DNA of 64,000 nt from an uncultured bacterium (GTDB taxonomy: Bacteria > Omnitrophota > Omnitrophia > Omnitrophales > Aquincolibacteriaceae), in contig CAYQTU010000002.1 of the NCBI GenBank assembly GCA_964420575.1, positions 18,534 through 82,533 on the forward strand. Direction: 5' to 3'. A model generated the notes under the pieces. The model searched no databases. It saw nothing but the letters and a program-made list of their open reading frames with translations, and was not told the DNA's origin. Of the stretch, positions 25,901-53,144 are shown piece by piece. Position 1 is the first letter of the stretch. The number at the start of each line of letters is the position of its first letter. The translations under genes and the position numbers were made by a program.

Positions 25901-26006
25901 GTTCATGGCCCCGGTTCATTTCAGTTCCGAGAACCGGAGCGCGCTTGGCCTTGAGTTTGTCGCGGAGCTGGACCGGGTCAATAAGCTTCTGGCGACAATG
26001 GCATAG
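10989..26006 (+). CDS. giant 5005-aa secreted/membrane-anchored multidomain protein
   Basis: Single uninterrupted frame of 15,018 nt; GTG start. N-terminal signal-peptide-like MKTIGWLRFRFAFRLISLVLILSLISSDILWANP. Several internal TM helices; Pro-rich linkers; a triplicated ~170-aa module with G-x-S-x-DCT / DPxF / NGxWVGNxYV motifs; coiled-coil of ~680 aa; C-terminal HEAT/PBS-lyase-like repeats (PAVGPLIEALN...VQLGAIQALGAIGSARAV). Minus-strand ORFs inside are short. Confidence 0.8.
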   Translation: MKTIGWLRFRFAFRLISLVLILSLISSDILWANPVSMVPSAGQSVYSPGTGLEGFARLNESTRSDQKDKSPIIYHIQDAHAVFEAQQNLAKIVEALIQKEGIDLVLVEGGAGNVSLTSLRSLAWKKVRKRVGESFLRQGKITGEEFLELSSDYPFELYGIEDPALYRQNLDVFLSGISKKEKLSKELGRLDSAFSSLESSIYPSRFRDLEELRLAWRFGKGDFQVYLNTLRKLINESKVPAHDLLEWRKLGNSETVRSIDAEKFLKEINVLESRLRESLLNTQAKRLWRAQEHLRLLGRLFSFELTSDEYALLNGQQHFDLKKTGADIERLIQDSVHLRKSFAFLRSEFPEFLKFYDLARKRDKAFIKNINSILREKRERKVILITGGFHSKHLGALLKEEGISRILISPEITGASKNIDSDYAKILRAKSKSTLRAPATLGSPFYPELKITLGREQAKELGGHIKQLISLLNVDHLMAPAASKSVLLRSELRMELFNHLGTFFALSNNGTAVHWIVIGSAGILGIGILAFLLSKWKKKHKATHQNPVLLADSEYSSDTELSSDENNADEAFANFEATLGHAATPAQAFAFESGRFFGSSFPVASQDQHLPPPPQELPLPVPLNAIPADLDQKGKTVFVLREVLQAMETMDSTMRGHQKESAERAIRRVVSEGDGTLDHRRFRQYLEEDIHQFFGTIFREMQKLSTTHRETGNYQVSEEIEKAFPRFPRYVKSILSENPGLSEDVEVRGLMNRISAKLGARPPVAEDLGDYVERSFSRIMEERAQTRMPVLPVVETPKPAPKKTVDLGRIQGQLRDVQRMRERFEADQISLHVELTQLETEYRELQESMEDARQKNDTVIQEALGPSIDAYESRIQLLRHNDGEIKDRLRQIKGEEAKLSEELDEATGRSELREFLSFPIVFSSLGTGLLMLTALYLTKINRAIHRIRELTVKSGRSWPFTWKQVFDETVHLKKEEKLSIFDGTSEPPAQGFAGFGVFLGWVIGGWALYQAYHGWGWNTAKILRGEGDSAFTFGGLLWCLEIFAAPIVGAIVAPFLAFLGTIAINRGRMIARILKFPFDYEKVLELHLSDFHAYHQPFLKKAARFLSHMKSSTLETILRGWFDRGEDEKLKAVLEKNVWSGENYALIARFRDEFGLKEAKKALFTAAGEEFGGRLLQIIDTFKAGLIAKKVSGAGILKDVILEVLKTEKEKHMATYWMTQLMSDPATPWNAGFDKVKAYYAVRKRVDVLKTDAAKKFGLDKEDLAQVDAHIGKWRERILAPENKVTEPSWVWSLISELLGKIIARSSTKVWFMHILEKSHSLNAPFFAPARQRELLSRLDWLINYEIAKSDVWASASESEKSVLLSEMTSLEAFLKENGVDYSIALPDTFTKIKALSAPERIMVLRAFRGLNPSVYKKDPQAAGRAFQLLADKEILRGRLAANNGSAGSIRELEARLAVQTPEDIQTLKSCYGVLAEKADAKAQGVLLALAARAPPAVLPVFLKSSDHLVSYYAAHPKGRDYDNLPLLADEYRKRYGSLFSLNGILLNILTDPSKPQAVRIEEAGKTIAGQVLVRMGFPENTIGVWDSVSPEEIIHAVGYEVLRYSEEKKSDDEEKRSYFSPEEIRGEGERFLPARTRNPVVRKALEKMGRFGLYSHWESARPAYYLQFLEDTKGLDPEFFKPGEKVRASYDGEFVSPRRAGSLAPIKDPIQTMKGLIRNLRDRYPNIYDNFIGPKREILAGKPLEDFITDEKSLMSVAGQFRKKVADWPLSEDERVEMMILIYQVAFSSSLQPVLGKSSETEETRYWQDTLKAFQSASGLKKQSELYRNVTARIKKRIDELIEEAGAGREGVVQFVLTRGSVSDFFRGEISEDCTSELWNMHFTDTVGLPTDPAFLSFRLVENGRWIGNAYAIVLKDSSGKFIFYLDNIPVMLRHPATTVQVKSDKLIQNFFKQLKPVLENAGFDYFVIANDPSSRANLRTSIKALGGSAETKTVTKPGGFGGQSEFGVSSEYIQGLGTLSSSISAAGTWITLDNRSAQAQKSKAELTALEKQIQAMEEDRKRLAALKAEKTGRANHLKTVLQTISQGSKRATAQALNEAAQKEELEAERLSIETRTLEEQVKAVRGRLTGLRNEVAQRSELRMPALLAQSLFPDLSPGLLLFGLCALLFGGLIVILIIDWYSEQVKRDEEYTRSLERHSDDFRYTLRPINETPGWMKHPLVVEVGELFKTVLANVSAEIRELVPHRIFLPIMGWSMDLSKEVVNVLSTARIVLLALKEKGSLIPFLKEQPYYQKFKEEASALGLDPEFDKPGLVSEFELSRHNGTKISFALEVSERTADDLLRGDISRDCTGLGAHAAFYETIPQFLLDPGFIDLKLRMHGRWVGNVYVIAMKREGKPVLVIDAVQLHPSFVLWPIRPATIADEAVKQVTEWAKTKNFQAVYMSRFISNFFYLYDHFDPKYPPQKTEIEKLGGFKHLKALGLWDADTRRNQYIETFSPHWNEPLRVDANSAHQTLLLRPIWSAEAPARSEMRTDKVWDLDGFHFEVPESDLKGLRGVEAEKESKNQNLLLRALASKELGLSAALKEAVLDPATKIRVRIHDETKTERIYKFIIVRPDGRRNFILEINPRGGKFHPYTEELNLVDTALMTATDSTGEVDLRDIFTKFGEPPDPKLHVIPSFGTLYAQEIHKHGYVDQGMKIFDLTIKDHPTPSIRIATKAKNASEFSGAKVIYDFNWQKTPYVLAVYSPGAEVSLSEPSTPIPSETVVVEAPVKAEAPEDLSPVSVPEPPEPETPEPAAAVAQSAGTAGVLGAGAAFIKAILAKKRESLFKASIQKIERIGSDILGIARKAKEAVETAVEPSDLDRLEAELASSASAIDEGLAKLEAEVAKYKDGSKERTELDALKQKISGEIEALKEADIAREAAVQATDDHAKAEEISQALAEESRKLTALKSQTDKAREELERLEQKTRDFTTQEKKRNDLLKTVEELSARIRGEEETLAALSEKTTQAERDLEVKRSQGETLARELASQESRLKALQADQEQARTELTEILSKLKSAKRRASDLARKTKQLEEISRKTEEKDRKLSAKNDELSKADQALTEKQRSLQALDETLAARGREIAALEEKAAGLRTETEALERRKETLSKSTEELGTMQSEVSAAEAELSGIRKQYEDAKAEYERVLALSREERGNLATIQAELSKAQEAAQAMETKLSDLKEQERKREALLRQIAEAERELEVKAASLKEINAELLKLDSKKTEQIQDSEKTDSEIAAKAAELTQVKAETAKLQSDLETLRGNIASLLGDIEAKKREAAALEEEKVRLLGEAKSIEEKNREIEEARRKLEAEQAERTKAEQALAEEQRKASDTAQGLKTVGERLKQTVRDIADRETKIAGLTSEVETEKAKTRQAEAGKSQAEAEREQLEADLTHAQQEKNVLEEALRQAQKTSKATGTTDSVLEGRESLEALLSELPESLWQLLGRHFPGQHQTSFQLTVSSVANELANAWSRSPFFRRIIKNLVLYRSLYVWLQKQPFYREFKKEAEKLGVKSDFDKPGEWIRFNIPGDSEGYSLELSKRDAEYLLRGFMSGDCTNCGPGYVTGSFLTATASHIVDPGFFNFKILRNGEWVGNVYVMAIREKNKPVLVIDAMQIPWQSASPLFIPFDLSQSKFPIVSEKDAITLADAVIRALSEYSSKAGFQELWLSSFVSNFSALKHHFYGANQDEFDKRVTGEAKIGGWSALKALGYEGHPYVESIGNPEAKKVWEAEEVPPPTQVEPPKVTPSTPEQPVKGTQNIKGLVQQIRESVMFSYGNIVPRGMEFVVKAPGAGVRWIAFDETANEWRLYEKANGRTESYPLFEIGSGVRQQSGTLNLSVIAVERGGKRIPVIRFLMLPPIKPGILETHVEEGGAIFEESGEMKVMPFTKKGFIVDDSRGAFFVHPGGDQGLDSKENISLPLSNHYDVSRSRFPTAKFILGWHTNPGGEPALHSEEENEIIRSNVEGFQLVASPKGISLVRYYKEGEAWKKRTLFTKTLNEDWASDLEAALQAELDDNVNFSASGFQLKLEDRKLLDVALEEGSKSASRNIKPEIERLRFDLTTYYELVPESLLSFIQDSDFKLVVVRPKTPRGERAPPMGLGVYLGKPGRDVFASFNVAPKEDADGFDVTIYVGNGIYELAGEKERLEIIAHELYQAFKVVSAQNPRKYQADIDLEIKIDQEIRNAEAWEARIPNEERADLGLIGGVANRTNAHVRARAFARLLGSKSSDGVGTTYTALLRNAWALARRFSGNVSQEDTLNPVPPVSHDAFRYTQDSYQNVVSPESLKTLFEMSAYVHENKEEDLLQFLDRKIEDGKRVLLFNTNAPTPWILKDLRKIVEGLSAEGKLGTLYIDLPPESQRLIDEFLRTGQSSEKLSKILATRFPVFLPREFQRPDLYENLLRAVYEFNLEARDSQKIKVVAYYRGRMLPSMPGPGQVPGRPGNVPQPPAGFPFGNAGENEFPAVMPRMNELPFAQGMSLPPLPLTPGVREAFSSALSEAGRNQGIAIFIKPLDEFLPEDLVRNPEVASILQIDKYTGFGPEKPENKLALYMSEQASPNQKSFALPIGSEAPFYEESINPGLPGGMRFNEFNAYPDLILSTAGDGEDTFEPTPDELVPDEIAPLVPVGSRSELRLQTTPAAIKALHERKAAIRELSRIGEPAVGPLIEALNFPSVSVQLGAIQALGAIGSARAVNPINHVAQAAALKDAARLAVEEIKSKTPVPSKREPNHHQPVPQIPSGRSIYSSFNSTRSDEFIRVLLKAAPIALDIDAETLIRKEHGRLSLSGWGFVEAIKSLERKLPDELLGRIQIRVINLNPELREEEIRRAFGITPELQSLIRIENVPVRHRAFKGLGNFLEKTALKIGSEKNQALWKDSLDILVENPRPSEVIDGRKLFLTALLHKTLRSRISEALKAVVVRLLHELGESSFMAPVHFSSENRSALGLEFVAELDRVNKLLATMA

Positions 26007-30946: not shown

Positions 30947-31711
30947 ATGAATCAACCGCCCGATAGCGAAAGTACCGCAATCGACGATTCTGACGATGAG
31001 TCAAAGATTATCACCCCGATTGAGTTAACGGATCGAGACATCGCGATTTTTAAATTGATCCACGAACACCGGTATTTGGCCTACGGCCAGATCCGGGAAG
31101 CGTTCTGGAAAGAGCGTTCGGAGTCGGCTAAAGCCTGTTACCGGCGGATCGAGCGGCTCATTAATTCAGGGTATCTTTCGAAAGGTTATTCCGGCCGAAA
31201 GAATCTGAACATCTATTTCGCGACCGAAAAATCCCTGGAGATCCTGAAAACTCGAAATCTCGATTCCGATATCCGACTTTATGAGCCCACCCCGTATTTC
31301 GATCGCTCCATCGACCATGATTTGAAAGTCGCAAGCGTAAGGATTTTCTTCCGGGAGTTTGGCCTGAGTGACTGGACCCCCGAAAGGGTGTTAAGGGAAC
31401 GCGATCATTTCTTTCGCGTCCCGGACGGTGTTTTGAATATTCGCGGGAAAAAGCTCGCAATCGAGTTCGAAAATCATCTGACGAAGAGCATGAAACGCTA
31501 TCAGGAAGTTTTTGATTATTACAGCGATCACAAGATCTATCTCCTGCTTCTCATGATTATCGACGGGGATACCAAGGACTGGCTCGTTCACGGAATGCGC
31601 TATAACGCCCAGAAGATCTGGATCACAACGTATCAGGAGCTGCTGAATGACAGGGAAGACACGCTTTTTGAAAATAAACGGGCCAGTTTCAAGCTGAGCC
31701 GGCTCTTTTAG
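30947..31711 (+). CDS. replication-relaxation (Replic_Relax) family protein
   Basis: 254 aa; N-terminal wHTH-like LTDRDIAIFKLIHEHRYLAYGQIREAFW...RRIERLINSGYL and C-terminal core HDLKVASVRIFF...VPDGVLNIRGKKLAIEFENH typical of this mobile-element family; RBS AAGGAGG. Confidence 0.55.
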   Translation: MNQPPDSESTAIDDSDDESKIITPIELTDRDIAIFKLIHEHRYLAYGQIREAFWKERSESAKACYRRIERLINSGYLSKGYSGRKNLNIYFATEKSLEILKTRNLDSDIRLYEPTPYFDRSIDHDLKVASVRIFFREFGLSDWTPERVLRERDHFFRVPDGVLNIRGKKLAIEFENHLTKSMKRYQEVFDYYSDHKIYLLLLMIIDGDTKDWLVHGMRYNAQKIWITTYQELLNDREDTLFENKRASFKLSRLF

Positions 31712-31719
31712 GGGGCGCG

Positions 31720-33540
31720 ATGCAAAAACCTCCTGTTAAAAGAGAACCGTTCCTCGTCCGTATGATCGGCGGGATTTTTGTGGGGATCCCTTTCGGGATT
31801 TCGAAGAGCATTCTGAATCTTTTGACGAGCCTTAAGCGTCCATCGCTTCAAAGACTGATCCCTGGGATACTTGTCTCGTTTTCGCTGTTTTGTGTTTTAA
31901 GGCTCGGCGCTCTTTTCGATCTGCTCGACCTTCTCTTTCAAAGCAGGCGGGTCGATCCCGGCTGGGCTGCGGGCGTGAAATTCGGGTTCTTTTTCCTGCT
32001 TTATCTCGTCATCACTCTCCCCGTTTTCCTGTGCTTTGCTTATTTGAATCAGGAAGCACGATTTTTCAAACAGGATCCAGTCAAACGAGACCCGTCTCCG
32101 GAACGGATGCGGTCTTTCCGCATGAAATCCGATTATCACAAGGTTTATCTGGGGTACGGCCTGAACCAGGAGAAACCTCTTTATCTCACCAACGACCAGC
32201 GCCTGATGCACTGCGAGGTGGTGGGAAGCACCGGCACCGGAAAAACGGAGTCCGTGCTTCTTCCGATGCTCGCCCATGACATCTCGCATGGGAAAGGCGC
32301 GATCATCATTGACGGAAAAGGGGACCTGGAACTCAGGGACAAGATCCGTTACATCGTCCATAAACAGAAGCGCGAGGATGACTTTTACTTCTTCTCGTTA
32401 AGCCATCCCCAAAAATCGAATACTTATAACCCGCTTTACCGCGGGAACCCCACGGAACTGAAAGACAAGCTCGTCAACAGCATGTCCTGGAGCGAGGAGT
32501 TTTACCGGCGCATGGCGGAACAAGCTGCGCTCACGCTTCTTAACGCCATCGCTTCCGCAGGCCGGAAACCCCGGTTTCGCGAGCTTCACGGCTATTTAAC
32601 GGACCTGCAAGCCTTACAAAAACTCTCGGATGAAACCAGGAGCCCGGTCCTGAAGGAAGACATTGGAAAAATGGTCACGGGTTTCAAGGACAATCACAAG
32701 TTTCTGGCCGGGTTAATATCCGATCTTTTCCTCACCTCAAGGAGCGAGTTCTCGGACCTTCTGGATACGGATGATCCCGATATCGATCTGCTTTCGCTTT
32801 ACGAGAATAACCAAATCTGCTATTTCGCGCTCGATCTTCAGAAATACGCGGATACTTCGCGGCGTCTCGGCCGGATGATCATCCAGGATATCCGTGCCGC
32901 TTCGAGCCATATCGTGTCCCATCTTACGGCTTACCGCCGTCATTTCTTCCCGGTGTTTATCGATGACGCCTCGAGTTTTTTGGAGCTTAATTTCATCGAT
33001 TTCCTGAATAAATGCCGGGCGAGCGGATATGCCGTTACGATTCTCCATCAATCCCTGGGGGACCTTGTTTACCGGGGGATGTCCAATTTCCAACAGCAGG
33101 TGGTCGAGAACACCAATATCAAGGTCATTTTGCGCCAGGATGATCCCTTTTCCGTGGAGAAGTTCGTGAAAATCGCCGGGACGCGCCGCACCATGATCGC
33201 GACTTACCAGACGCAGGAACAAATCCTTGGAAAAGGACTGACCGGCGCGGGCTCCGTTCGCGAAGGCCAGACTTTCCGCATCGAGCCGGACCTGATCCGG
33301 GGCCTTAAACGCGGCGAGGCCGCCTTGATCTGGAAAAACCCGTCTTTGTTGACCGATCATATTAAACTCGATTTCTTCGGGTACTCGAGTTATCCGGAAG
33401 AACCGTCCTCAAAAGACAACGGGGAGAAGATTCCAAAGAAAAAACGTGCAATAAAAACTCTCACCGAAGAAAAGGAGAAAACTCATGAGGAGATCAAAAA
33501 TCCGCTTGATATCATCAATCAATTAGAAAAAGAGAAATGA
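31720..33540 (+). CDS. type IV secretion coupling protein (VirD4/TraD/TraG-like ATPase)
   Basis: N-terminal TM helices, Walker A VVGSTGTGKTES, Walker B-like region FFPVFIDDASSFL, 606 aa. Confidence 0.8.
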   Translation: MQKPPVKREPFLVRMIGGIFVGIPFGISKSILNLLTSLKRPSLQRLIPGILVSFSLFCVLRLGALFDLLDLLFQSRRVDPGWAAGVKFGFFFLLYLVITLPVFLCFAYLNQEARFFKQDPVKRDPSPERMRSFRMKSDYHKVYLGYGLNQEKPLYLTNDQRLMHCEVVGSTGTGKTESVLLPMLAHDISHGKGAIIIDGKGDLELRDKIRYIVHKQKREDDFYFFSLSHPQKSNTYNPLYRGNPTELKDKLVNSMSWSEEFYRRMAEQAALTLLNAIASAGRKPRFRELHGYLTDLQALQKLSDETRSPVLKEDIGKMVTGFKDNHKFLAGLISDLFLTSRSEFSDLLDTDDPDIDLLSLYENNQICYFALDLQKYADTSRRLGRMIIQDIRAASSHIVSHLTAYRRHFFPVFIDDASSFLELNFIDFLNKCRASGYAVTILHQSLGDLVYRGMSNFQQQVVENTNIKVILRQDDPFSVEKFVKIAGTRRTMIATYQTQEQILGKGLTGAGSVREGQTFRIEPDLIRGLKRGEAALIWKNPSLLTDHIKLDFFGYSSYPEEPSSKDNGEKIPKKKRAIKTLTEEKEKTHEEIKNPLDIINQLEKEK

Positions 33541-33633: not shown

Positions 33634-33728
33634 CAGCCCGGAAAAAGGAGGTGATTTTGGCAAAGAAAAAAGCTTCAGCAGTTTCATAAATGTTTCAAAA
33701 AACCAATAAATCCAAAAGGAGAAAGACA

Positions 33729-34241
33729 ATGAATACCAAGAAAGAAAGCACCAAACACAGCGACAAGATCATCAAGGACGTTCCGCGTTTCGAGAACGAT
33801 ATTTACCGCGTCAGTTCGTGGACCGGTAAGGACGGAGCGTCCTTTTTGGATCTTCACGTGTATTACAAGAAGAACGGGGAGTTCACAAAAACGAAGGAAG
33901 GGATGAACGTCCGCTCGGACTTCCGCAAGGAAATCGCGGAAGCTCTTGTGGCCGCGAAATCCGCTCCGGCGCTTTCCCTTCCCGCCGAAGGCAAGAACTG
34001 TGAAACGGTTCTCGTGACAAGCGTCTCGATTTCCGAAACCGAGCAGTACCAGGTTTCGAAAGTCCGCGGTCCGAAGAACAGTTTCGTGCGGATCTCGTAC
34101 GCCTTCAAGGGGGACGAAGGAAACTTCATCCCGAATGGCAAGAAAGCCCTGTCCATTCTGGAGTCTTCCGTGGAAGGCGTGGTGGAGGCCCTCAAAAGCC
34201 CGGAAGCCGAGCCTGCGAAGGCGGCCGTTCACGCCGCTTAA
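33729..34241 (+). CDS. tandem PC4/YdbC-like putative ssDNA-binding protein
   Basis: ATG at 33729 after RBS AAAAGGAGAAAG. Two repeats resembling the PC4 fold signature: IYRVSSWTGKDGASFLDLHVYYKKNGEFTKTKEGMNV and YQVSKVRGPKNSFVRISYAFKGDEGNFIPNGKKALSI. Confidence 0.45.
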   Translation: MNTKKESTKHSDKIIKDVPRFENDIYRVSSWTGKDGASFLDLHVYYKKNGEFTKTKEGMNVRSDFRKEIAEALVAAKSAPALSLPAEGKNCETVLVTSVSISETEQYQVSKVRGPKNSFVRISYAFKGDEGNFIPNGKKALSILESSVEGVVEALKSPEAEPAKAAVHAA

Positions 34242-34268
34242 TTCGCGCGGTATCAACCGGAAACTTAA

Positions 34269-34312
34269 GGGAGAGGTGGTTTTAACAAAACCGCTTCTCC
34301 CTTTTTGTTTTT
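34269..34312 (+). terminator. rho-independent terminator
   Basis: GGGAGAGGTGGTTTT-AAC-AAAACCGCTTCTCCC stem then TTTTTGTTTTT. Confidence 0.6.
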
Positions 34313-34740: not shown

Positions 34741-35199
34741 ATGCTTACACGCAAAGAATTACTCGAAATCGTGAATGAATTGAACAGCCAGAACGCCGGC
34801 CGCCAGGTCGGATACATCTCAGGTTACCGCGATCAATGGTTCATCGGGGGTTATATCGGCAGGGATAACTCCGACCGTCAGGAACTCGAACTGCATTTTT
34901 GTCAGGGGAGGAATGTCGGCCGGATCAATTTCAACGGCGGGTACACGGTTACGTTGGATATTACCCGTTGCAAGAACCAGCAGGAGGTGTTCGAGGAATT
35001 CGAACTCCTCGATCATCACAAGCGCTGCGAGAAGGAGCGGGCGGAAGAGCGGCAGGCAAAACTCGATGCCCGCTGTTTACGCTGCGTCAATTTTCTCGGA
35101 AGACTTACGAGAAACTGCAAACCCTCTTCAGAGTGCGGCTACAAACGTACTCGCCGCCGCGTCAAAGAAGCCCTAGCCTCGGTTAACGCCGGCTCATGA
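34741..35199 (+). CDS. hypothetical protein
   Basis: RBS AAAGGAGG 8 nt upstream; 152 aa; C-terminal Cys pairs. Confidence 0.55.
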   Translation: MLTRKELLEIVNELNSQNAGRQVGYISGYRDQWFIGGYIGRDNSDRQELELHFCQGRNVGRINFNGGYTVTLDITRCKNQQEVFEEFELLDHHKRCEKERAEERQAKLDARCLRCVNFLGRLTRNCKPSSECGYKRTRRRVKEALASVNAGS

Positions 35200-35899: not shown

Positions 35900-35936
35900 C
35901 GGGCAGGGCCGTGAAAGCGTCCCTGCCTTTTTCATT
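35900..35936 (+). terminator. rho-independent terminator
   Basis: GGCAGGG-CCGTGAAAGCGT-CCCTGCC then TTTTTCATT. Confidence 0.6.
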
Positions 35937-35952
35937 AAAGGAGGGAGAGTTT

Positions 35953-36456
35953 ATGGAATATCCGAACCGCGAAACGCTTCAAGCGGAGCTTTACCAGGAC
36001 CTGAAAAAACTGCTTCTTGAATATCACTCCGGTCTTTTTGAAACGAAGAAAAAGGAGGATGAAGGGGAACTTCTTATCAAGAAACTTTATCTCGATTCGC
36101 AGGAGGGCTGCGTTCCCGACGAATTTATCGGGGAGGAACTTCTCTATGCCGTGAAAGAGAAGTTTTACGCGATTTTCAGCGTGATCCGGGACAAAGTAGC
36201 GGCGGATTATTTGCACAAGAAGAACATCCATTGCCCCCCGATTTCAATTCTCATTGAAGCCTCGTATGAGGATGTCACGTATGTCGTTGTCTTGTTTCAA
36301 AACGCAGTGATCTCGGAGTACAACGCGAAGGCCTGGAATTTCGTGTGGATTTCACCCGAGGAACTCCAAAAAGAAATGGCGGATCTCTTTTACAAGATGA
36401 GGGACCGCCTTAACCAGTATTTCGTCGAAGGCATTCGCTACGTTAAACAAAAATGA
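35953..36456 (+). CDS. hypothetical protein
   Basis: ATG 35953 with AAAGGAGGGAG RBS (ORF-track start 35911 overlaps the terminator hairpin). Confidence 0.55.
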   Translation: MEYPNRETLQAELYQDLKKLLLEYHSGLFETKKKEDEGELLIKKLYLDSQEGCVPDEFIGEELLYAVKEKFYAIFSVIRDKVAADYLHKKNIHCPPISILIEASYEDVTYVVVLFQNAVISEYNAKAWNFVWISPEELQKEMADLFYKMRDRLNQYFVEGIRYVKQK

Positions 36457-36486
36457 CCCTGCTCACTTTAAAAGGAGAACATTCCC

Positions 36487-37593
36487 ATGAAGAAACTTTA
36501 TACAGAGTACAAAGGCATTTACGTGCTTCAGGATCCGGGGGATCTCGCGGCCCTGAAACTTGATTCGTGCGTTGTTTCAAGGAAAAGACACCAGATTTAT
36601 ATCGCTCCGCTTGAGAATCTTCAAACAAAGCAGGTGGAGGACAAGCGTAGTTCCGGGTATTCCGACCCTGTTTTCGGATTTTACGCCGCGAAACCCGAAA
36701 GATTCCTCGTGATTAATGGCGAGCGCAAGAACTCGAAATTCTGCGATCTTTGCAAGGACCGGTTGCACGGGATCACCGGCAACTGTTTTAACTATGGGGC
36801 GAAACCAGGCGGCTGTTCTTTCCGTCCGGCAAAGGCTCCGGGGAAATTCAATATCTCGCTTGCCGGATGGAAGTATTTAAAGCCCTCGCGCGTCAATCAA
36901 TACTCACCCTTTAAGAAACCTTGGAGCGCGGAATACATCCATCTCGATTCGAAAATAATTAACCGGAACAAACGCGCCCTCGCCGCGCGCAATGATTTTT
37001 GGGGCCAGCTTGAGAAGAAGAAGGCGAAATATTGCGCCCGCTGCATCTTCAAAGGCCGCTGTTACATGAACAGCATGCGGATCGCAGAGCGCTGCATGGT
37101 CACGGTCGAGAAAACCGAGAAACGCTCTTTAGGGAAAATTCATTCGAGATTCGGAAGTGTTGAGGAGTTTTTGAACCGGCTTGCTTATTGCGGGAAGGAG
37201 ATCGTCTGCCGTCCGAAGGGCGAGAAGCGGAAAACGAGGTGGGTGGTCACGAAACCCGTAGGCCGTAACAAATTCCTCATTCGAAAAAGAAGCCGGCCTT
37301 TCAAAAGAGCGATCGTTTCAAAGACGAGAATCGAAAGAAACGTGGTTCCGGAAGCGTTGCCGTCGCTTGAGCGTGAGAAGATAGCGACTTTTGCCTGGTA
37401 CTTTTTCGAAAAGTACTGCGCGAAAGATCAGGACGCGTACCGGGGATACCGGGGCCGCACGATTCGTATTCTTTCGGTCACTCCGGTTCCTAGCGGCATC
37501 GAGGTGAGCTATTACCCTTACGGCTGGGGCACTCCAAGCATCTCTCGAAAACAATTCCATTCATTTAATGAGATTGTGAGTTTCGAGCGTTGA
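36487..37593 (+). CDS. Cys-rich hypothetical protein, paralog A of tandem pair
   Basis: 368 aa; RBS AAAGGAGAAC; conserved with 37622..38680 over whole length (KFCDLCKDRLHGITGNCFN / CSFRPA / KYCARCIFKGRCYMNSMRIAERCMVT). Confidence 0.7.
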   Translation: MKKLYTEYKGIYVLQDPGDLAALKLDSCVVSRKRHQIYIAPLENLQTKQVEDKRSSGYSDPVFGFYAAKPERFLVINGERKNSKFCDLCKDRLHGITGNCFNYGAKPGGCSFRPAKAPGKFNISLAGWKYLKPSRVNQYSPFKKPWSAEYIHLDSKIINRNKRALAARNDFWGQLEKKKAKYCARCIFKGRCYMNSMRIAERCMVTVEKTEKRSLGKIHSRFGSVEEFLNRLAYCGKEIVCRPKGEKRKTRWVVTKPVGRNKFLIRKRSRPFKRAIVSKTRIERNVVPEALPSLEREKIATFAWYFFEKYCAKDQDAYRGYRGRTIRILSVTPVPSGIEVSYYPYGWGTPSISRKQFHSFNEIVSFER

Positions 37594-37621
37594 TTCACAT
37601 TCAAACCAAAGGAGAACCAAG

Positions 37622-38680
37622 ATGGAAAAAGTTTATACGGAGATCGATGGGACTTATGTTTTTCCGAAGCCCCGCGACCTTAGATCCCTCAAGCCTGATT
37701 CGTGCGCGGTACGGATCATGAAGGATAAACCCTGCGTGATTCCATTGAAAAATCTTCAGGGGAAGGAGGTCGAGAATGGGAACCGGCACGGCTATTCTTG
37801 CGTGTGGGGATATCACGACGATAAGAGCGATCCTTACATCGTCATGAACGGCGAGAAAAAGAAACCGAAGTTCTGCGATTTCTGTAAGGACCGTTTGAGC
37901 GGGATTACCGGCAATTGCCTGAACCGGGCCGTTAAACCCTCAGGATGTTCGTTCCAGCCGGCGGATGATTTGAAGCCTTTTGAGATCAATTTGACGGGCT
38001 GGAAGAAACTCCGTGCGATCGATCTCAACGAACGGACTCCTTTTTTAAAACCGTACATGGGCGGTGTTTCTTTTGATCCGAAACTCATCAAACAAAACCG
38101 AAAAATCCGGATGATCGCGAGGCACCTCCCGGAATATCAGGAACGGAAGCTCGAGAAATACTGTTCCCGCTGTATTTTTCAGGGAACTTGTTATCTCTAT
38201 AGCACTAAAGTGGCCGAGCACTGCATGGTCACCGAGGAAAAGACCATAAAAGGGTGTTTGGTGCAGATTCGGCGGCGGTTTGGGAACGTCGATGAATACC
38301 TCGGAATGCTTGCTTACTGCGGCGGCAAATTGACGTACAAACCCGAGGGGCAACCCCAAGAATCGGAATGGCGGGTCTCGCAGCCTTTCAGCAAGAAACA
38401 GTATGAGATCGTCGGGTCTTATTCCGGGTATAGCGGTTCGAAAGCACCAAGAAAACTCGTCGAGGATTCCGTAACGCCCGTTCGTGTTCCGACACGGAAT
38501 CGTGAAAAGATCGCGGCCCTCGCCTGGTATTACCTGGATCACTATCCTTTTCACCGGCTCTGGATTTCGCTTAAACAGGGGGGTATTGAAGCGACGCATC
38601 AAGTGCACGGCCACAACCGTTTCTTCCGCGCTGAGGTTTTTACGTCCTTCAACGAGATCCATTACTTCTTCTGTCGTTAG
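37622..38680 (+). CDS. Cys-rich hypothetical protein, paralog B of tandem pair
   Basis: 352 aa; RBS AAAGGAGAACC; KFCDFCKDRLSGITGNCLN / CSFQPA / KYCSRCIFQGTCYLYSTKVAEHCMVT. Confidence 0.7.
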   Translation: MEKVYTEIDGTYVFPKPRDLRSLKPDSCAVRIMKDKPCVIPLKNLQGKEVENGNRHGYSCVWGYHDDKSDPYIVMNGEKKKPKFCDFCKDRLSGITGNCLNRAVKPSGCSFQPADDLKPFEINLTGWKKLRAIDLNERTPFLKPYMGGVSFDPKLIKQNRKIRMIARHLPEYQERKLEKYCSRCIFQGTCYLYSTKVAEHCMVTEEKTIKGCLVQIRRRFGNVDEYLGMLAYCGGKLTYKPEGQPQESEWRVSQPFSKKQYEIVGSYSGYSGSKAPRKLVEDSVTPVRVPTRNREKIAALAWYYLDHYPFHRLWISLKQGGIEATHQVHGHNRFFRAEVFTSFNEIHYFFCR

Positions 38681-38733: not shown

Positions 38734-39780
38734 ATGAATACCGTCGATTTAGTGAAAATCCTGAAACAATGTTTCCAGGCGAATGTCACGCCTCTTATCT
38801 GGGGTCAGCACGGGATCGGGAAAAGCCAGATCGTGCAGGCCCTCGCTTCTGAACTGAAATACGAATGCGTGGATCTCCGGCTTGGCCAGATGGAGGTTGG
38901 AGACCTGATCGGTCTTCCCTCAAAGGAGGAGGGAAGAACCGTATGGCTCAAGCCCTCCTGGTTCCCGAAAGAAGGAACGGTTGGGATCCTATTCCTCGAT
39001 GAGCTGAACCGTGCGCGGCTTGACGTGTTGCAAGCGATCTTTCAGCTTGTCTTGGAGAGGAGACTCCACACCCATCGTCTTCCGGACGGCTGGAAAATCG
39101 TGTGCGCTTCCAATCCTTCCGGGAGCGATTATTTCGTCAATGAACTCGATCCGGCGCTTCTTGATCGGTTTCTTCACATTCAGTTCCGGCCGGAACCCAA
39201 CGAATGGATCGGCTGGGGCAAGGACACCGGCAAAATCCGGGGAGAGATCCTCGATTTAATCGCGCGGTATACGCATCTTCTCGGAAGCCCCTCGAACGAG
39301 CTTCCTCTCGAAGTGCTTCCATCCCCGAGGTCCTGGGAGATGCTTTCCCGGATGTTGAACGGTCTTGAGGACCGGCTCTGGCTGCAATGCTCGATGGGTC
39401 TTGTGGGGAAGGAGGCGGCCATCGCGTTTATCGAGAGCCTAAAAAAGGATCAGGAGATCCCGATCAAAGCCGAGGAAATACTTTCGGATTACGCGAAAGT
39501 GAAAGCACGCGTTAAAAAATACTCGTCCGGGAAGAAGGCGCGTCTCGATCTTCTCAGGATCACGGGCGACGAGTTTTTAAGGATCCTCGCCAAGGAAGGG
39601 AAAGCAAAAGCGTTAAGCGCGAAAGAGAAAACGAATCTCGTGGATTTTCTCGATGAACTTCCCGTCGATCTCGCGTTTGCGCTCGTCAAGGAACTCGTCA
39701 AGATCCCGGAAGTGAACACGCTTCTTCATTCCCAGGAGAAATTCACGGAGAAGCTCGCGCAGGCCGCGCAAGCCTCTTAA
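38734..39780 (+). CDS. MoxR-like AAA+ ATPase (AAA_5)
   Basis: Walker A LIWGQHGIGKSQ, Walker B ILFLDELNRA, sensor region IVCASNP; 348 aa. Confidence 0.8.
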   Translation: MNTVDLVKILKQCFQANVTPLIWGQHGIGKSQIVQALASELKYECVDLRLGQMEVGDLIGLPSKEEGRTVWLKPSWFPKEGTVGILFLDELNRARLDVLQAIFQLVLERRLHTHRLPDGWKIVCASNPSGSDYFVNELDPALLDRFLHIQFRPEPNEWIGWGKDTGKIRGEILDLIARYTHLLGSPSNELPLEVLPSPRSWEMLSRMLNGLEDRLWLQCSMGLVGKEAAIAFIESLKKDQEIPIKAEEILSDYAKVKARVKKYSSGKKARLDLLRITGDEFLRILAKEGKAKALSAKEKTNLVDFLDELPVDLAFALVKELVKIPEVNTLLHSQEKFTEKLAQAAQAS

Positions 39781-39800
39781 ACGTACTTTTCAGAAATATA

Positions 39801-39830
39801 GGCGGGGATTTTTTTCCCCGCCTTTTTTCT
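39801..39830 (+). terminator. rho-independent terminator
   Basis: GGCGGGGA-TTTTTTT-CCCCGCC followed by TTTTTTCT. Confidence 0.65.
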
Positions 39831-39853: not shown

Positions 39854-40237
39854 ATGGGTTATTACACGGATTTTACGGGCTCCATTGATTTACCGGGCAT
39901 TTCCGAAAAAGACACGCAGCATCTTGAAAACATCATTCGTCGTCATTTCCGGAACGCGGAAAGCGGAATCCGTCTTGAGAAAAACAAAGACGGCTGTTCC
40001 CTTGAGTTTTTTGCCAACTGGAAAAACTATAACGAGGAGTTCCAGCGGTTCGTGATGGCGGTTGTCCGGGCGTTTCCCAAAGCCGCAGCCGGCCGGATTG
40101 ATGCCTGCGGAGAGGATAGGGATGACAACTGGGCGCTCGAAGTCGGAGGTGGCAAAGTGATTTATATCAGCTACGAACAAGTCGCGAAAGATCGAACCGT
40201 CTATTTTGACGCAAAAGGAGGAAGACATCATGATTGA
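39854..40237 (+). CDS. hypothetical protein
   Basis: RBS CAAGGAGGAAAAC; 127 aa; between MoxR ATPase and VWA genes. Confidence 0.55.
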   Translation: MGYYTDFTGSIDLPGISEKDTQHLENIIRRHFRNAESGIRLEKNKDGCSLEFFANWKNYNEEFQRFVMAVVRAFPKAAAGRIDACGEDRDDNWALEVGGGKVIYISYEQVAKDRTVYFDAKGGRHHD

Positions 40238-41315
40238 GGAAATGGTCGTTTCACTGGTACAGACAAAACCGTTTTACGCGCATTTCATCCAGCAGATGAA
40301 CCGGATCGAGACGGAGAAGATCCCGACGCTTGGCGTGAATATAAAAGAGCGCATCAACCTCTATTTCAATCCGAAGTTTCTGGACCATCTCCGATTTGAC
40401 GAACGGGTCGCGTGTCTGGAGCACGAGGTACTGCATCTTTTGCATCTCCATCTTTTCCGGGGCGATGGCAAGAACCACCGGGTTTTCAATATCGCCTGCG
40501 ATCTTGCCATTAACACCTATATCGAGAACCTTCCGAAGATCGCGCTTTTCCCGAAACTCTTCGGGTTCGAGGAAGGCCAAACCGCGGAATGGTATTACAA
40601 GAAATTAATCGAGAACTCGGAGAAGCTCGCAGCAAAGATCGCGAAGGCGGGAGAATCCTTCCTTGACGATCACGAACTTTGGAAAGACTCGGAAGGAGAT
40701 CCCGAGTATCAGCAGGAATTTTTAAGGCGCGCCATCAAGATCTCGCTTGATGAAACGCAGGACTACGGTTCTTTGCCTGGGAACATGAGCGAGGAACTGA
40801 AGGAATTCCTGAAAGGCTCCCGCGTGAATTGGAAGAGCGTGCTTGAGCGATTTTTGATTCACGCCACGCTTGTCCGTTCGATTTTCTCGAGGAAACGTCC
40901 GAACCGGAGGTTCGAGGAGTTCCCGGGCGAAAAAGTGGAACAGAAACTCAAGCTCCTGATCGGGCTTGATACGAGCGGGAGCGTAAGCGACTGTGACCTC
41001 GCGCTTTTCTTCGCCGAGATCGAGAAAATCAAAGCGCTCGGCATGGACATCACGGTCGCTGAGTGCGACACAGAGATCGGAAACGTTTACCGCTACAAAA
41101 CACGGCCGAAAGCCGTATCGGGCCGCGGCGGCACGAGTTTCCGGCCGGTCTTTGATTTGGCCGAAAAACTCCGGCCCGATGCCGTTCTTTATCTCACGGA
41201 TGGAGAAGGCGCTTATCCGGAACGTTCGAAGTATTCGACGCTCTGGTGTCTTACTCCGGACGGGAATTTCTCGGGCTCATTCGGCAAAGTCCTGAAACTT
41301 CCGCAGAAAAAATAA
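40230..41315 (+). CDS. putative metallopeptidase-like N-domain + VWA (MIDAS) domain protein (DUF2201-type MoxR partner)
   Basis: ATG 40230 with AAAGGAGG RBS. N-terminal HExxH-like LEHEVLHLLHLHLF, C-terminal MIDAS motif LIGLDTSGSVSD plus conserved GGTSF...YLTDGEG. Confidence 0.65.
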   Translation: MIEEMVVSLVQTKPFYAHFIQQMNRIETEKIPTLGVNIKERINLYFNPKFLDHLRFDERVACLEHEVLHLLHLHLFRGDGKNHRVFNIACDLAINTYIENLPKIALFPKLFGFEEGQTAEWYYKKLIENSEKLAAKIAKAGESFLDDHELWKDSEGDPEYQQEFLRRAIKISLDETQDYGSLPGNMSEELKEFLKGSRVNWKSVLERFLIHATLVRSIFSRKRPNRRFEEFPGEKVEQKLKLLIGLDTSGSVSDCDLALFFAEIEKIKALGMDITVAECDTEIGNVYRYKTRPKAVSGRGGTSFRPVFDLAEKLRPDAVLYLTDGEGAYPERSKYSTLWCLTPDGNFSGSFGKVLKLPQKK

Positions 41316-42828: not shown

Positions 42829-43290
42829 ATGGGATTTGACATTGTTGGGCACGATCCAAAAACAGAAAAAGGCGAATATTTCAGGAATAACGTCTGGTGG
42901 TGGCATCCGTTATGGGGGTTTGTATCCAAACATTGCCGGGACATTCTGACCCCTCAAGAGATCGAAGCCGGATCCTTTAATAACGGCACGCTTATTCCCG
43001 CAAGAAAAGCGCGTTTGATCGGGCTTCGCCTCAGGTTCCTGCTCGATCAAAAAGAAGTGAAAGAGTTCGAGGAGGAATACAGAAAACACCTCGATTCACT
43101 GCCGGATGAGCCCTGCGATCTTTGCGCGGGCACGGGGAAACGTTACGACGAATTCGTGAAAGGGGATTGCAACGGCTGTGGGGGCAAAGGGAAGAAACGT
43201 CCCTGGGTCACGAACTATCCGTTTAAGGAAGAAAACGTAAAAGATTTCGCGGATTTCGCGATCGAATCCGGAGGGTTCAGGATTTGTTAA
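42829..43290 (+). CDS. hypothetical protein with DnaJ-type CxxCxGxG zinc-finger repeats
   Basis: CDLCAGTGKRYDEFVKGDCNGCGGKGKK; RBS AAAGGAGG. Confidence 0.55.
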   Translation: MGFDIVGHDPKTEKGEYFRNNVWWWHPLWGFVSKHCRDILTPQEIEAGSFNNGTLIPARKARLIGLRLRFLLDQKEVKEFEEEYRKHLDSLPDEPCDLCAGTGKRYDEFVKGDCNGCGGKGKKRPWVTNYPFKEENVKDFADFAIESGGFRIC

Positions 43291-47790: not shown

Positions 47791-48069
47791 GTGAAAACGC
47801 TGAAAGGTTTCACGAAAATTCAAAGCAAGAACAAGATCCTCGGGCTCGAGTTCCTTGATCTTTTGATCCTGCTTCTTGTTTATCTGGTGGTGTTCGTTTT
47901 CTCCGCGAACCTTCTCCTCAACCTCGCGCTCGTGGCGGGAGCCTATTTTATTTTACGGCTCTACAAAAAAGGGAAGGCCCCGCACTGGGCGGGTTCTGTG
48001 ATCCGGTTCTTGCTAAAGCCCCGGAAATACGTTTTATGCCGGGAAAAAGAAGAGGAGCTTCCCCGATGA
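47791..48069 (+). CDS. VirB3/TrbD-like small membrane protein
   Basis: GTG after GGAGG; 92 aa with one or two TM helices; position between pilin and VirB4-like ATPase with 4-nt overlap. Confidence 0.45.
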   Translation: MKTLKGFTKIQSKNKILGLEFLDLLILLLVYLVVFVFSANLLLNLALVAGAYFILRLYKKGKAPHWAGSVIRFLLKPRKYVLCREKEEELPR

Positions 48070-50579
48070 AAACGAGTCTTCTCACTAAAACTCGGGACCT
48101 CATCCAGCGGGAGAATAGTCCCTCGTTTCTGCGTCAGATCGATCTTTATGACATTGAGGACGGAATTCTGCTTGGGGTAAGCGGCAGCATGGCTCGCGGG
48201 TTCTGGTTTGGCGGAAAGGATGTACTGCTTTCAAGCGAGGCCGAGATCGAGGATTTCGAAAGAAAGATGCGAAAGTTCTTAAACGCGCTCCCGGAAGGAG
48301 CAACTCTCCATTTCGTGGTCCGATCCGGGACTGGGGATGAAGACTCACTCAAGCAATACGCCTCTTCGATTCAAAGCGGAGTTTCGCTTGGAAAAACCTT
48401 TCTTGACGCGAAACTCGGCGCGTACCGGAAACATCCTCTTTTGAAAAAGGAAGTTTTTTTGTTTGTGGTGATCCATCCGAAGACGAGAAAACCGCGTTCC
48501 TCGTTTCTTCCGGATCTGTCCGTCGCATTCGGGAAAAAAGCGCACCGCCTCTCCGAACTTGAATACTCCGCATCGAGAGAAACGCTTCACGCGCTTACGA
48601 CCGAGATCGAGGAAAGTTTCCGTACGCTCGGTTTCGATATGCGCGCGCTTTCCGACCCAGAACTCACCAAGTACTTGTATGAGTTCCTGAACCCGTTTTA
48701 TTCGAAGGAATTCGTTCCCTTCGAGAAAGCCAATTTTAAAGCGAGCGACTCTGACCCGGCGAGCCTCAGAAGCCGTCTTTCGCTTCATCCTCCGCGTCTT
48801 GGGTACGAGTATTTCTATCTCGACCACTATTTTTACCGGGCATTGAATCTCGTCCGTTTGCCTGACTCCACGACTCTTAAATCCATGAAAGATTTCGAGC
48901 GCTCGCTCGGTAACGATTATTTCCTTACGGTCACTTTCGAGGTTCCCGATCAGGACCGCGAGAAATCGGAGATCCGGCGGTACGGGAACTTCGCGAGAGC
49001 GAAAACCTTTTACTCCCGAGCGAAGGATCATGACGCGCTCGCGCAAGCCGGGGAAACGGACGAGCTTTTGACGGAGATTGCCCAAAGCGCGGACAAGCTC
49101 TTTTACGTTTCGTTTTCCGTGATGGTGCGTGCCGAGACCTTGGGAGAAAGCGTCCGGTCTTCCAGGCAGGCGCTTCGTGCTTTCCGGGATCTCGGGGACG
49201 CTCAGGGGATCGAGGACCACATGAATCACGACCGTTTATTTCTTTCGTTTTTGCCGCTTCAGGGCGATGAAAACCCGCTCGCGTTCATAGTTCGTTCCGA
49301 AGTCCTAACGCATCTTCTTCCGCTTCAGGCGAGCTGGCGAGGGACGGACCGGATCGGGCTGCTTCTCAAGACTTACCGTAACGAACCGCTCCGCCTCGAT
49401 CTTTTCGATTCGAAGCTTCAGGCGAAACACAGCGTAATGCTCGGCACGACCGGGAGCGGAAAGAGTTTTTTTACGAACCACTTACTCCTTCATTTCCTGA
49501 TTGAGTCTCTGGATCATGAAGTGATCGTGATCGACCTGGGCGGCAGTTACCGGAAACTGGCCGGAGTTCTGGGCGGGTCTTATCTCGAAGTAGAATGCTC
49601 GGAAAAATACGCGTTAAACCCTTTTCCTGCCAAGGCAGTTCTTTTCCCGGACGGAGGAGCGGACGCGACTTTCATTCAGTTCCTGAAGGAACTGCTCAGG
49701 CAGATGATCGCCCCGAGACGGGAATGGTCCTCAAGCGAGAAGATGATCCTTGAACGGGCGATTCTGGAAGTCTACCGGAATATTGGTGCCCAGGATGCCC
49801 CGCTTCTCGGGGACATCGAAAAATGCCTTCGCAATTTCCAGATCGGGGATGAGGAGGACCGCAAGAAAGCGTATCAGTTCGCGAAAGAACTTACGCTTTT
49901 CACGGAAGGCGAGTACGGGAAGATCCTTAACCGATGCGGGGTCTTTGATTTTAATTCGCGGTTCACGGTTTTCGATCTCCGGAAGATTTCGCAATACCCC
50001 GAGCTTCAGGAGATCCTGCTGCTCATTATTCCGTTCGCGCTTCGCCGTAAATTCGAGAACTTGAATCTAAAGAAGATCCTCGTTTTGGACGAATGCTGGC
50101 AGCTTCTGAAAGACAGTCAGGGGACGGATCTTGTCGAGACCTTCTACAGGACCGCCCGGAAAATGAACGCCGCGGTTTGCTCGATCTCTCAAAACCCAGC
50201 GGATTTTCTCGAGGCGTCCATCGCGAGCGTCATGATCAATAACTCTCCGGTTAAATACATCCTTCGGCTCAAGGAAGGCCACGGGAAACTCTCGCTTTTC
50301 GGGCTGAACGAAAACGAGATCAAAGCGGTCGGGGAGCTTGAGGTGAGACCGGGCCGGTACTCGGAAGTGTTTATCAAATTCGACGATCGAAGCGTCATTG
50401 CCCGTCTTGAGCCAAGCGCTCTCGAGTATTGGGCCGCCACGACGGACGCTCTGGATTTGGCAGAGGAAACCCGGCTCCGGAAAGAACATCCGGATTATCC
50501 GCCGATCAAGATCCTCGAAACGCTTTCCCGGGAGTTTCCAAACGGCGTTAAGAAATCAAACGAGGCGGATCATGTCTGA
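48066..50579 (+). CDS. VirB4/TrbE/CagE-like type IV secretion ATPase
   Basis: ATG 48066 after GAGGAG; Walker A MLGTTGSGKSFF, Walker B ILVLDECWQLL, ~840 aa, conserved C-terminal region. Confidence 0.9.
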   Translation: MKTSLLTKTRDLIQRENSPSFLRQIDLYDIEDGILLGVSGSMARGFWFGGKDVLLSSEAEIEDFERKMRKFLNALPEGATLHFVVRSGTGDEDSLKQYASSIQSGVSLGKTFLDAKLGAYRKHPLLKKEVFLFVVIHPKTRKPRSSFLPDLSVAFGKKAHRLSELEYSASRETLHALTTEIEESFRTLGFDMRALSDPELTKYLYEFLNPFYSKEFVPFEKANFKASDSDPASLRSRLSLHPPRLGYEYFYLDHYFYRALNLVRLPDSTTLKSMKDFERSLGNDYFLTVTFEVPDQDREKSEIRRYGNFARAKTFYSRAKDHDALAQAGETDELLTEIAQSADKLFYVSFSVMVRAETLGESVRSSRQALRAFRDLGDAQGIEDHMNHDRLFLSFLPLQGDENPLAFIVRSEVLTHLLPLQASWRGTDRIGLLLKTYRNEPLRLDLFDSKLQAKHSVMLGTTGSGKSFFTNHLLLHFLIESLDHEVIVIDLGGSYRKLAGVLGGSYLEVECSEKYALNPFPAKAVLFPDGGADATFIQFLKELLRQMIAPRREWSSSEKMILERAILEVYRNIGAQDAPLLGDIEKCLRNFQIGDEEDRKKAYQFAKELTLFTEGEYGKILNRCGVFDFNSRFTVFDLRKISQYPELQEILLLIIPFALRRKFENLNLKKILVLDECWQLLKDSQGTDLVETFYRTARKMNAAVCSISQNPADFLEASIASVMINNSPVKYILRLKEGHGKLSLFGLNENEIKAVGELEVRPGRYSEVFIKFDDRSVIARLEPSALEYWAATTDALDLAEETRLRKEHPDYPPIKILETLSREFPNGVKKSNEADHV

Positions 50580-50699
50580 GGCGGTAGCGGAACGGCACAA
50601 ACGATGGATCGGAAGAATTCGCCGGAGACTGTTTCTCCGGTTCTTTTTGGGGGTTCTGATAATTAGCCTTGGATTTTTACTTTTATTTGGGAGGTAATT
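50571..50699 (+). CDS. hypothetical small membrane protein (42 aa)
   Basis: ATG 50571 overlapping VirB4 end; RRRLFLRFFLGVLIISLGFLLLFG. Confidence 0.3.
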
Positions 50700-50700
50700 T

Positions 50701-51468: not shown

Positions 51469-51475
51469 TTATTTT

Positions 51476-52980: not shown

Positions 52981-52997
52981 AAATCTTCGTTTTTTTT

Positions 52998-53063: not shown

Positions 53064-53144
53064 CCGGTCTCCCGGGGGCCATTCGGGCCCTTCAAGATGA
53101 CTTGGTTTCTCATCCCCTCCATTTACATAAGGAGCGGGGAATCC

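Follow-up and report, generated by a model that had tools for sequence, protein, structure and literature searches.

What do two adjacent cysteine-rich genes do in a bacterial conjugative element when neither of them resembles any named protein? The question was raised by a stretch of 64,000 nucleotides (nt) from an uncultured bacterium of the Omnitrophota (GenBank assembly GCA_964420575.1, contig CAYQTU010000002.1, positions 18,534 to 82,533 of the forward strand), which is the window referred to throughout and to whose numbering the coordinates belong. The two genes, here called A (36487..37593, +; an open reading frame (ORF) of 368 amino acids (aa)) and B (37622..38680, +; 352 aa), are followed directly downstream by genes for an AAA+ ATPase of the MoxR type and for a protein joining a metallopeptidase to a von Willebrand factor A (VWA) domain, a linkage that was missed in the initial annotation of the locus. 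Based on this linkage, on two conserved sets of four cysteines and on the basic character of the proteins, we propose, at a probability of about 0.45, that A and B are a metal-stabilized, nucleic-acid-binding adaptor or client which constitutes the third component of a MoxR-VWA-peptidase module.

A paralogous pair with two four-cysteine sites

BLASTP aligned A and B collinearly over their full lengths with 39% identity and 57% positives (E 3e-90), far beyond chance, so that their paralogy is certain. Both ORFs are preceded by the Shine-Dalgarno sequence AGGAG, placed 9 nt 5' of the ATG of A (36473..36477, +) and 7 nt 5' of the ATG of B (37610..37614, +). The initial annotation had described two adjacent genes of these lengths and coordinates with ribosome-binding sites, sharing a series of sequence blocks; all of this was recovered, every quoted block being present in the A/B alignment, but the identity of about 45% that it had estimated by eye was too high.

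The family to which A and B belong is rare, without name or known relatives, and consists of basic proteins of about 350-400 aa. A search of 5.8 billion clustered proteins yielded 24 clusters with 39-100% identity, whose named sources are all Candidatus Omnitrophota metagenome-assembled genomes (MAGs), and a profile search of all 1.84 billion cluster representatives gave 33 proteins at E<=1e-3, including distant members with 18-29% identity. Among 185,579 GTDB species, each represented by one genome, seven family loci were found, in Omnitrophota wherever the MAG is named. No relatives were detected when 72,556 plasmid and 50,697 phage records were searched by tblastn with A and the distant member P0042, nor any family member when IMG/VR was scanned with subgroup alignments. 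As the initial annotation had stated, no family could be recognized: Pfam returned no model for A or B at E<=10, NCBIfam, PHROGs and PADLOC gave no match to either, and PDB searches by sequence with the profiles A1 and A2 returned chance antibody matches or none. Pfam searches with 29 diverse relatives gave insignificant matches only, such as zf-HC5HC2H_2 (E 0.018) and Zn_ribbon_HMPTM (E 0.038), each in a single member, and Fer4_16 (E 0.066) in three members.

Nine cysteines are invariant in the alignment of 25 core members (C28, C86, C89, C100, C110, C183, C186, C192 and C203 in A numbering). In a wide alignment of 29 sequences, whose identities go down to 18-29%, no columns but C183, C186, C192 and C203 are invariant; C86, C89, C100 and C110 are at least 90% conserved in the distant relatives, and C28 is lost in them. 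The conserved core is thus two Cys4 sites, eight cysteines in all, kept down to about 20% identity. In A, the first putative metal site has the form C86-x2-C89-x10-C100-x9-C110 (36742..36816, +) and the second C183-x2-C186-x5-C192-x10-C203 (37033..37095, +); the corresponding ligands in B would be C85, C88, C99 and C109 (37874..37948, +) and C181, C184, C190 and C201 (38162..38224, +). The prediction in the initial annotation of at least eight conserved cysteines and two zinc sites stands as far as the eight cysteines in two sets are concerned, but the cysteine of its 'LAYCG' block (C235) is not conserved. This column varies between C, A, S and G across the 25 core members, and C235 was ruled out as a metal ligand. 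Cysteines are the only invariant residues of the wide alignment and no catalytic-type set is conserved, which speaks for a structural or binding role and against an enzyme. The metal sites would be structural in our proposal. At the first of them zinc is favored, because one distant subgroup (P0034, P0036, P0037 and P0041) has histidine in place of C86, an exchange of the first ligand that zinc sites show more typically than iron-sulfur (Fe-S) clusters do.

AlphaFold2 models built from the family alignments reached a predicted local distance difference test score (pLDDT) of 84.1 and a predicted template modeling score (pTM) of 0.55 for A, and of 82.9 and 0.61 for B. Both models show an identical order of secondary-structure elements: an N-terminal beta-barrel-like domain, the first Cys site, an extended linker and a long helical hairpin running into the second Cys site, followed by two helices, a four-stranded beta unit, a helix and a C-terminal three-stranded beta unit with a terminal helix. 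They are compact and confident outside the Cys loops. Low confidence was found mainly in both of these loops, which was expected because no metal was modeled, and in a short loop near residues 50-60. Foldseek comparisons of the models with PDB and BFVD gave nothing at E<1e-3, the only structural resemblance being to small SH3/Tudor-like barrels. Structure prediction, one of the checks suggested with the initial annotation, thus produced confident models without a recognizable fold relative, and neither sequence nor fold searches showed homology to a characterized housekeeping family. The cysteine sites resemble Cys4 zinc-ribbon and treble-clef modules in that each set opens with a CxxC knuckle to which two more cysteines are added, an arrangement present twice in each protein, as well as in the Cys/His swap and the very basic surroundings. 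They differ from such modules in that neither site has another CxxC knuckle as its second half, no zinc-finger family or fold was matched significantly by Pfam or by structure, and the surrounding fold has no detectable relative.

Concerning the metal of the second site, its core-family spacing CX2CX5C would also suit an Fe-S cluster. Clusters of the [4Fe-4S] type with this spacing are found in EndoIII/MutY, in Cas4/AddB and in WhiB-like proteins, and A and B could in principle be DNA-processing enzymes (nuclease, glycosylase or primase-like) of that sort, with C183-x2-C186-x5-C192 and C203 holding the cluster. The three weak Fer4_16 matches, the presumably anaerobic life of the hosts and the fact that NorQ/NorD, relatives of the linked MoxR-VWA pair, mature metal centers agree with this explanation. 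Nevertheless, we regard it as very unlikely: the gap between C186 and C192 takes lengths of 4 to 10 residues among distant relatives, the lack of any invariant residue but cysteine leaves no catalytic set visible, and the Fer4 matches are not significant. No fold similarity to such enzymes was seen, neither HhH-GPD nor PD-(D/E)xK catalytic folds or residues being found in the A/B family, and the histidine swap at the first site speaks for zinc.

Linkage to a MoxR-type ATPase and a metallopeptidase-VWA gene

The ATPase gene that follows B (38734..39780, +) encodes a Walker A motif (GQHGIGKS), a Walker B motif (ILFLDE) and the sequence LLDRF. In Pfam the protein matched AAA_5 (E 2.9e-10), AAA_3 more weakly and bpMoxR only below threshold, and its closest solved relatives in a PDB search were midasin AAA domains, NorQ and CbbQ, the similarity of the NorQ/CbbQ type being weak (E 1e-5 to 6e-4). 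The metallopeptidase-VWA protein (40206..41315, +) is of the coliphage N4 gp25 type and contains a DUF2201_N domain (E 1.4e-24) with the zincin motif HEVLH and a VWA-like DUF2201 domain (E 2.8e-19) with the DTSGS motif of a metal ion-dependent adhesion site (MIDAS) and a TDG motif; its TTG start is uncertain and overlaps a 127-aa ORF (39854..40237, +). This small ORF lies between the ATPase and VWA genes in eight of nine distinct Omnitrophota elements. Both partners look active, for the window retains intact Walker A and B, HExxH and DxSxS (MIDAS) motifs, and distant modules keep several of them.

The cysteine-rich gene was linked to AAA_5 and DUF2201 genes in 15 of the 17 informative loci. 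In all nine distinct Omnitrophota elements, whether single or in tandem, it stands immediately upstream of the AAA_5 gene, and the DUF2201 gene comes next after a small intervening ORF in these elements except L023. A search of conjugative elements and plasmids for homologues and their neighbors, also suggested with the initial annotation, thus found no relatives in the plasmid records, and AAA_5/DUF2201 genes as neighbors in the Omnitrophota elements. Distant relatives with 18-29% identity stay linked to these genes on contigs of 0.32-0.50 GC content and in varied order. The cysteine-rich gene precedes the ATPase and VWA genes in L014, precedes the ATPase gene at the contig end in L010 and L025, and follows the VWA gene in L007; in L026 the order is cysteine-rich gene, ATPase, a 131-aa ORF, VWA and a second cysteine-rich gene, and in L012 the ATPase-VWA pair has the cysteine-rich gene about 6 kb downstream. 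The 131-aa ORF of L026 occupies the position of the 127-aa ORF of the window, with no detectable similarity between them. When linkage outlasts divergence to about 20% identity and a rearranged gene order, this usually points to a functional module.

Two of these distant contigs carry other genes beside the module. In L012, a RVT_1 reverse-transcriptase gene (8777-9814) is placed directly 5' of the cysteine-rich homologue. L026, a contig of 16.6 kb and 37.6% GC, has a polyketide synthase of >2415 aa (KS-AT, ketosynthase and acyltransferase) at 1-2970 (-) beside the module, which is thus not in an obvious phage or conjugative context. An origin of the distant contigs from N4-like phages was considered and set aside, the giant ORF of L026 being this polyketide synthase and not a virion RNA polymerase.

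Several observations weigh against a cysteine-rich third component of the module. The nine Omnitrophota loci share ancestry and amount to approximately one observation of synteny, so that the independent evidence of linkage consists of six short metagenomic contigs. One subfamily, of the P0043/P0044 type with an isoelectric point (pI) of about 7-8.5, showed no ATPase or VWA gene in the available flanks (L013 and L009). A terminator-like hairpin separates the ATPase gene from the VWA gene in the window. Finally, tblastn with the window VWA protein found the same pair in 428 phage and 98 plasmid records, and hidden Markov model searches of three annotated phage or plasmid ATPase-VWA neighborhoods revealed no cysteine-rich relative, from which it follows that the pair does not require the family. 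Unannotated ORFs beside the pair in Moorella phage MTATph1 and in a Chondrinema plasmid were tried as remote homologues and rejected, at hhalign probabilities below 1%. The cysteine-rich family is therefore a lineage-restricted addition to a widespread ATPase-VWA pair.

The occurrence of the pair without the family in N4-like phages and plasmids would also be in keeping with a stand-alone DNA-binding regulator or establishment factor, for example a zinc-finger transcription factor or a nucleoid-like protein that coats incoming DNA, whose adjacency to MoxR-VWA genes would be inherited synteny. Such a protein would be very basic and could have two Cys4 sites and SH3-like barrels, as A and B do, and it would not be out of place among the small genes that separate the coupling protein from the type IV secretion system (T4SS), where sister elements carry a gene for a PC4-like protein of the single-stranded-DNA-binding kind. 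However, inherited synteny alone does not easily account for a linkage that survives rearrangement and divergence to about 20% identity on unrelated contigs, and neither Pfam nor the fold search detected a helix-turn-helix (HTH) or known DNA-binding domain in A or B. We therefore consider a stand-alone function unlikely.

The third-component proposal draws on precedents of three kinds: MoxR-vWA pairs with a linked third protein, a viral MoxR protein with several partners, and the clients of NorQ and CbbQ. NorQ and CbbQ act on a specific client enzyme, and NorQ/NorD matures a metal center. The module in the window resembles NorQ/NorD and CbbQ/CbbO in combining an ATPase ring with a VWA adaptor, and here a candidate client is linked to them; it differs in that this candidate is small, basic and cysteine-rich and a peptidase domain is added to the VWA partner. 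In the ternary systems described by Kaur, Burroughs, Iyer and Aravind (2020, eLife; PMC7159879), a third linked protein completes the MoxR-vWA system, and this protein is of four kinds: VMAP, inactive STAND, FtsH or beta-propeller (PMC7159879). A MoxR-type ATPase, a vWA gene with MIDAS and a further linked gene are common to those systems and to the window, where the vWA protein carries the zincin peptidase domain in addition. Unlike in the ternary systems, the third component here belongs to none of the four kinds: A, B and the 29 relatives fall in no Pfam family and the A/B fold is neither a propeller nor a P-loop. Whereas the ternary systems occur in defense islands of multicellular bacteria, the present module lies in the conjugation backbone of an Omnitrophota element and has no effector domain; PADLOC gave no match for any module gene.

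A gene pair built alike is found in phages. The 14 core genes of N4-like phages include gp24 and gp25, which are expressed in the middle stage of infection and are of unknown function (PMC4193335). As in coliphage N4, an AAA_5 ATPase in the window precedes a protein whose HExxH peptidase is N-terminal and whose VWA domain is C-terminal, and the phage matches to the window VWA protein include gp25 homologues such as that of PhAPEC7 (E 8e-11), which carries the annotation of an N4 gp25-like protein and has a gp24-like ATPase gene before it. A MoxR gene paired with a gene for a vWA protein with an N-terminal metallopeptidase is also present in group 2.2 jumbo phages, for which a role as a virion-assembly chaperone was proposed (Iyer et al. 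2021; PMC7824862). No relative of the cysteine-rich family was found among the phage records searched or in the three annotated phage and plasmid neighborhoods, and the role proposed in phages, that of assembling virions or tails, cannot be carried over to a conjugative element. The MoxR-VWA cluster is likewise kept in pCAR1 (ORF100-103), R478, Rts1, SXT and R391 (PMC2642839), where, as in the window, the pair belongs to the backbone of a conjugative element and is accompanied by uncharacterized ORFs; these elements differ in that A and B have no relative among the plasmid records searched. The only viral case studied experimentally is p618, the MoxR protein that ATV (Acidianus two-tailed virus) encodes; it binds the VWA protein p892, its partner, along with three further proteins of the virus, whereas viral DNA is not bound (PMC4124505). 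That MoxR-vWA pairs on mobile elements can have a third protein linked to them was already known, and what is new is this particular third component, its fold and its association with a pair of the gp24/gp25 type.

In the mechanism that we propose, the cysteine-rich protein would be an adaptor that brings the VWA (MIDAS)-peptidase protein and the ATPase ring to their target; alternatively, it would be a client that the chaperone pair assembles, remodels or loads with metal. The intact zincin motif of the linked VWA protein suggests a further variant, in which the cysteine-rich protein is a substrate or pro-protein of the HExxH peptidase, or is exported by the T4SS, with the ATPase-VWA pair serving to unfold or present it. 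Peptidolytic processing has been proposed for the jumbo-phage pair (Iyer et al.; PMC7824862). However, no evident cleavage site, signal or disordered tail was found and the models are compact outside the Cys loops. This variant is a special form of the client model and not a genuine rival to it; taken by itself, we rank it as the least probable explanation discussed here.

Charge, selection and the duplication

A has a pI of 10.0, with 76 lysine and arginine against 33 aspartate and glutamate residues, and B a pI of 9.3, within a core family that ranges from 9.3 to 10.1. The mean net charge of the whole protein is +36 in the A clade, +29 in the single-copy proteins and +19 in the B clade. This difference between A and B is concentrated in residues 236-292 and 312-333. 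In the first of these regions, a beta-rich segment (37192..37362, + in A), the B clade has a mean net charge of +4.6, compared with +13.4 for the A clade and +14.2 for the single-copy proteins, and the second is a basic insert that B does not have. Because the single-copy proteins resemble the A clade and not the B clade in charge, A is the member of ancestral character that keeps a basic C-terminal surface, and B the derived, less basic copy that lost it. The strongly positive surface would bind nucleic acid, most plausibly the DNA of the element during or after transfer, and its retention in A together with its loss in B suggests an A-B hetero-oligomer.

The tandem pair is present in six distinct elements and a single gene in three. 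In a neighbor-joining tree the A clade (82% bootstrap) and the B clade (95%) show mirrored branching, which indicates one old duplication followed by co-retention in all of the descendant elements sampled, and the place at which the single-copy clade branches is left unsettled. According to our proposal, this duplication in one sub-lineage would have led to an A-B hetero-oligomer replacing an ancestral homo-oligomer. The distant module of L026 has two family members as well, one on each side of the ATPase-VWA genes, so that a two-subunit arrangement may be a recurring solution, reached independently there and in the tandem lineage.

Tandem duplication with divergence inside a mobile element had been taken in the initial annotation as a frequent mark of specificity-determining or anti-defense functions, and A and B could be diverging proteins of this kind, delivered early to the recipient. 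Their position in a conjugative element between the relaxase and coupling protein genes and the T4SS genes, the restriction of the family to mobile or mobile-looking contexts and its evolution, 3-5 times faster than that of the neighboring ATPase, are compatible with such a role. However, the ratio of nonsynonymous to synonymous substitutions (dN/dS), read from the comparison with the closest sister element only because synonymous sites are saturated in more distant comparisons, amounted to 0.10 in A and 0.16 in B; the coupling protein, with 0.10, evolves at about the same rate as these two, and the ATPase had 0.03. A and B are real genes under purifying selection, with no signature of diversification. 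They are core syntenic genes in nine of nine elements and not variable accessories, and their history is one of a single old duplication with co-retention rather than of repeated diversification. The metal sites are the best conserved parts between A and B (70% identity at the first site and 60% at the second), the family comparison revealed no hypervariable surface, and the PADLOC searches matched nothing. The anti-defense expectation finds no positive support in these data, and we judge such a function to be highly improbable.

A bolder extension of the adaptor or client proposal, which we offer as speculation and think improbable when taken as a whole, is that in the cysteine-rich family lies the client or adaptor so far missing, from which the role of the N4 gp24/gp25-type module on mobile elements becomes apparent. 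The basic metal-site protein would recruit the ATP-driven machine to incoming or replicating DNA of the element, the machine would strip or proteolyse proteins bound to that DNA, e.g. the covalently attached relaxase or host nucleoid or defense proteins, and the A/B heteromer would serve as an asymmetric DNA-binding platform with a previously unseen fold. Apart from this extension, the ATPase and peptidase-VWA pair is widespread in N4-like and jumbo phages, conjugative plasmids and integrative and conjugative elements and is uncharacterized, and a linked third protein that is a candidate client or adaptor offers a way into the function of the module. A new metal-binding architecture would be a further gain. 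The very narrow distribution of the family, a few dozen clusters in uncultured hosts, limits its value.

The surrounding conjugative element

The placement of the pair inside a mobile element, made in the initial annotation, is confirmed by the gene content of the window. Among the genes of a conjugative element there are a Replic_Relax relaxase gene (30947) and a coupling protein gene (31720), which together span 30947-33540. After them come small unknown genes and then A, B, the AAA_5 ATPase gene, the 127-aa ORF and the DUF2201 gene; 3' of the latter there are further unknowns, a DUF932 gene and a gene for a sigma-70 region-4 protein, followed by homologues of VirB4, VirB6, VirB9 and VirB10 (48036-55147).

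Two of the small genes upstream of A belong to the same co-directional block. A 152-aa ORF (34741..35199, +) is a conserved upstream member, and a 181-aa ORF (35911..36456, +) is placed directly 5' of the cysteine-rich gene in eight of the nine Omnitrophota elements. In L001 and L005 the end of the 181-aa gene overlaps the start of the cysteine-rich gene, which suggests translational coupling. Neither the 181-aa nor the 127-aa ORF was detected in L023; both may be further components of the module. Two terminator-like hairpins were found, by consensus scan only. The first (34267..34303, +), with a 17-bp stem and a T run, probably marks the start boundary of the transcription unit that holds A and B, and the second, bidirectional one lies directly 3' of the ATPase gene (39800..39823). 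Together they plausibly bracket a transcription unit made of the upstream small ORFs, A, B and the ATPase gene.

Other ORFs of the block are small as well. A 183-aa ORF 3' of the coupling protein gene (33690-34241, +) has no Pfam match itself and matched a 76-aa PC4-like (PF02229) gene of L003 (E 2.9e-7), PC4 genes being present in this region of L001, L003 and L005. A 153-aa ORF (42829-43290, +), conserved in L018, is another small cysteine-rich protein, with a weak match to the DnaJ CXXCXGXG-type zinc finger (E 0.008) that falls below threshold.

No tyrosine-recombinase homologues and no tRNA were found in the 64,000 nt of the window. In the sister element L003, three tandem Phage_integrase genes (16593-19506) are inserted between the u206 and DUF932 homologues, and a RVT_1 reverse-transcriptase gene (19161-20465) lies inside the sister element L006.

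Toward the left of the window, a 5005-aa ORF (10989-26006, +) has a HEAT repeat near residue 4700 as its sole Pfam match. Giant ORFs are also located just 5' of the LacI/relaxase genes in sister elements, with >3365 aa in L005 and with >1901 aa, RHS/YD repeats and a Peptidase_S8 domain in L001; they may be cargo or a conserved part of the element family. At the other side, directly 3' of the VirB10 homologue, genes for a TolC-like outer-membrane protein, a GT2 glycosyltransferase and a HlyD-type membrane-fusion protein (55441-59496, +) may represent a T4SS-associated export system or adjacent cargo. A YhcG-type PDDEXK nuclease with a DUF1016 N-terminal domain is encoded at 60188-61513 (+), where GC content drops from about 0.51 to 0.40-0.46, and this region may be near the right end of the element. 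Finally, a HisKA_7TM histidine kinase and response regulators are encoded left of the element in the window (3458-7093, +) and the same families are found right of the element in L001 (15388-21134), consistent with insertion into similar chromosomal neighborhoods.

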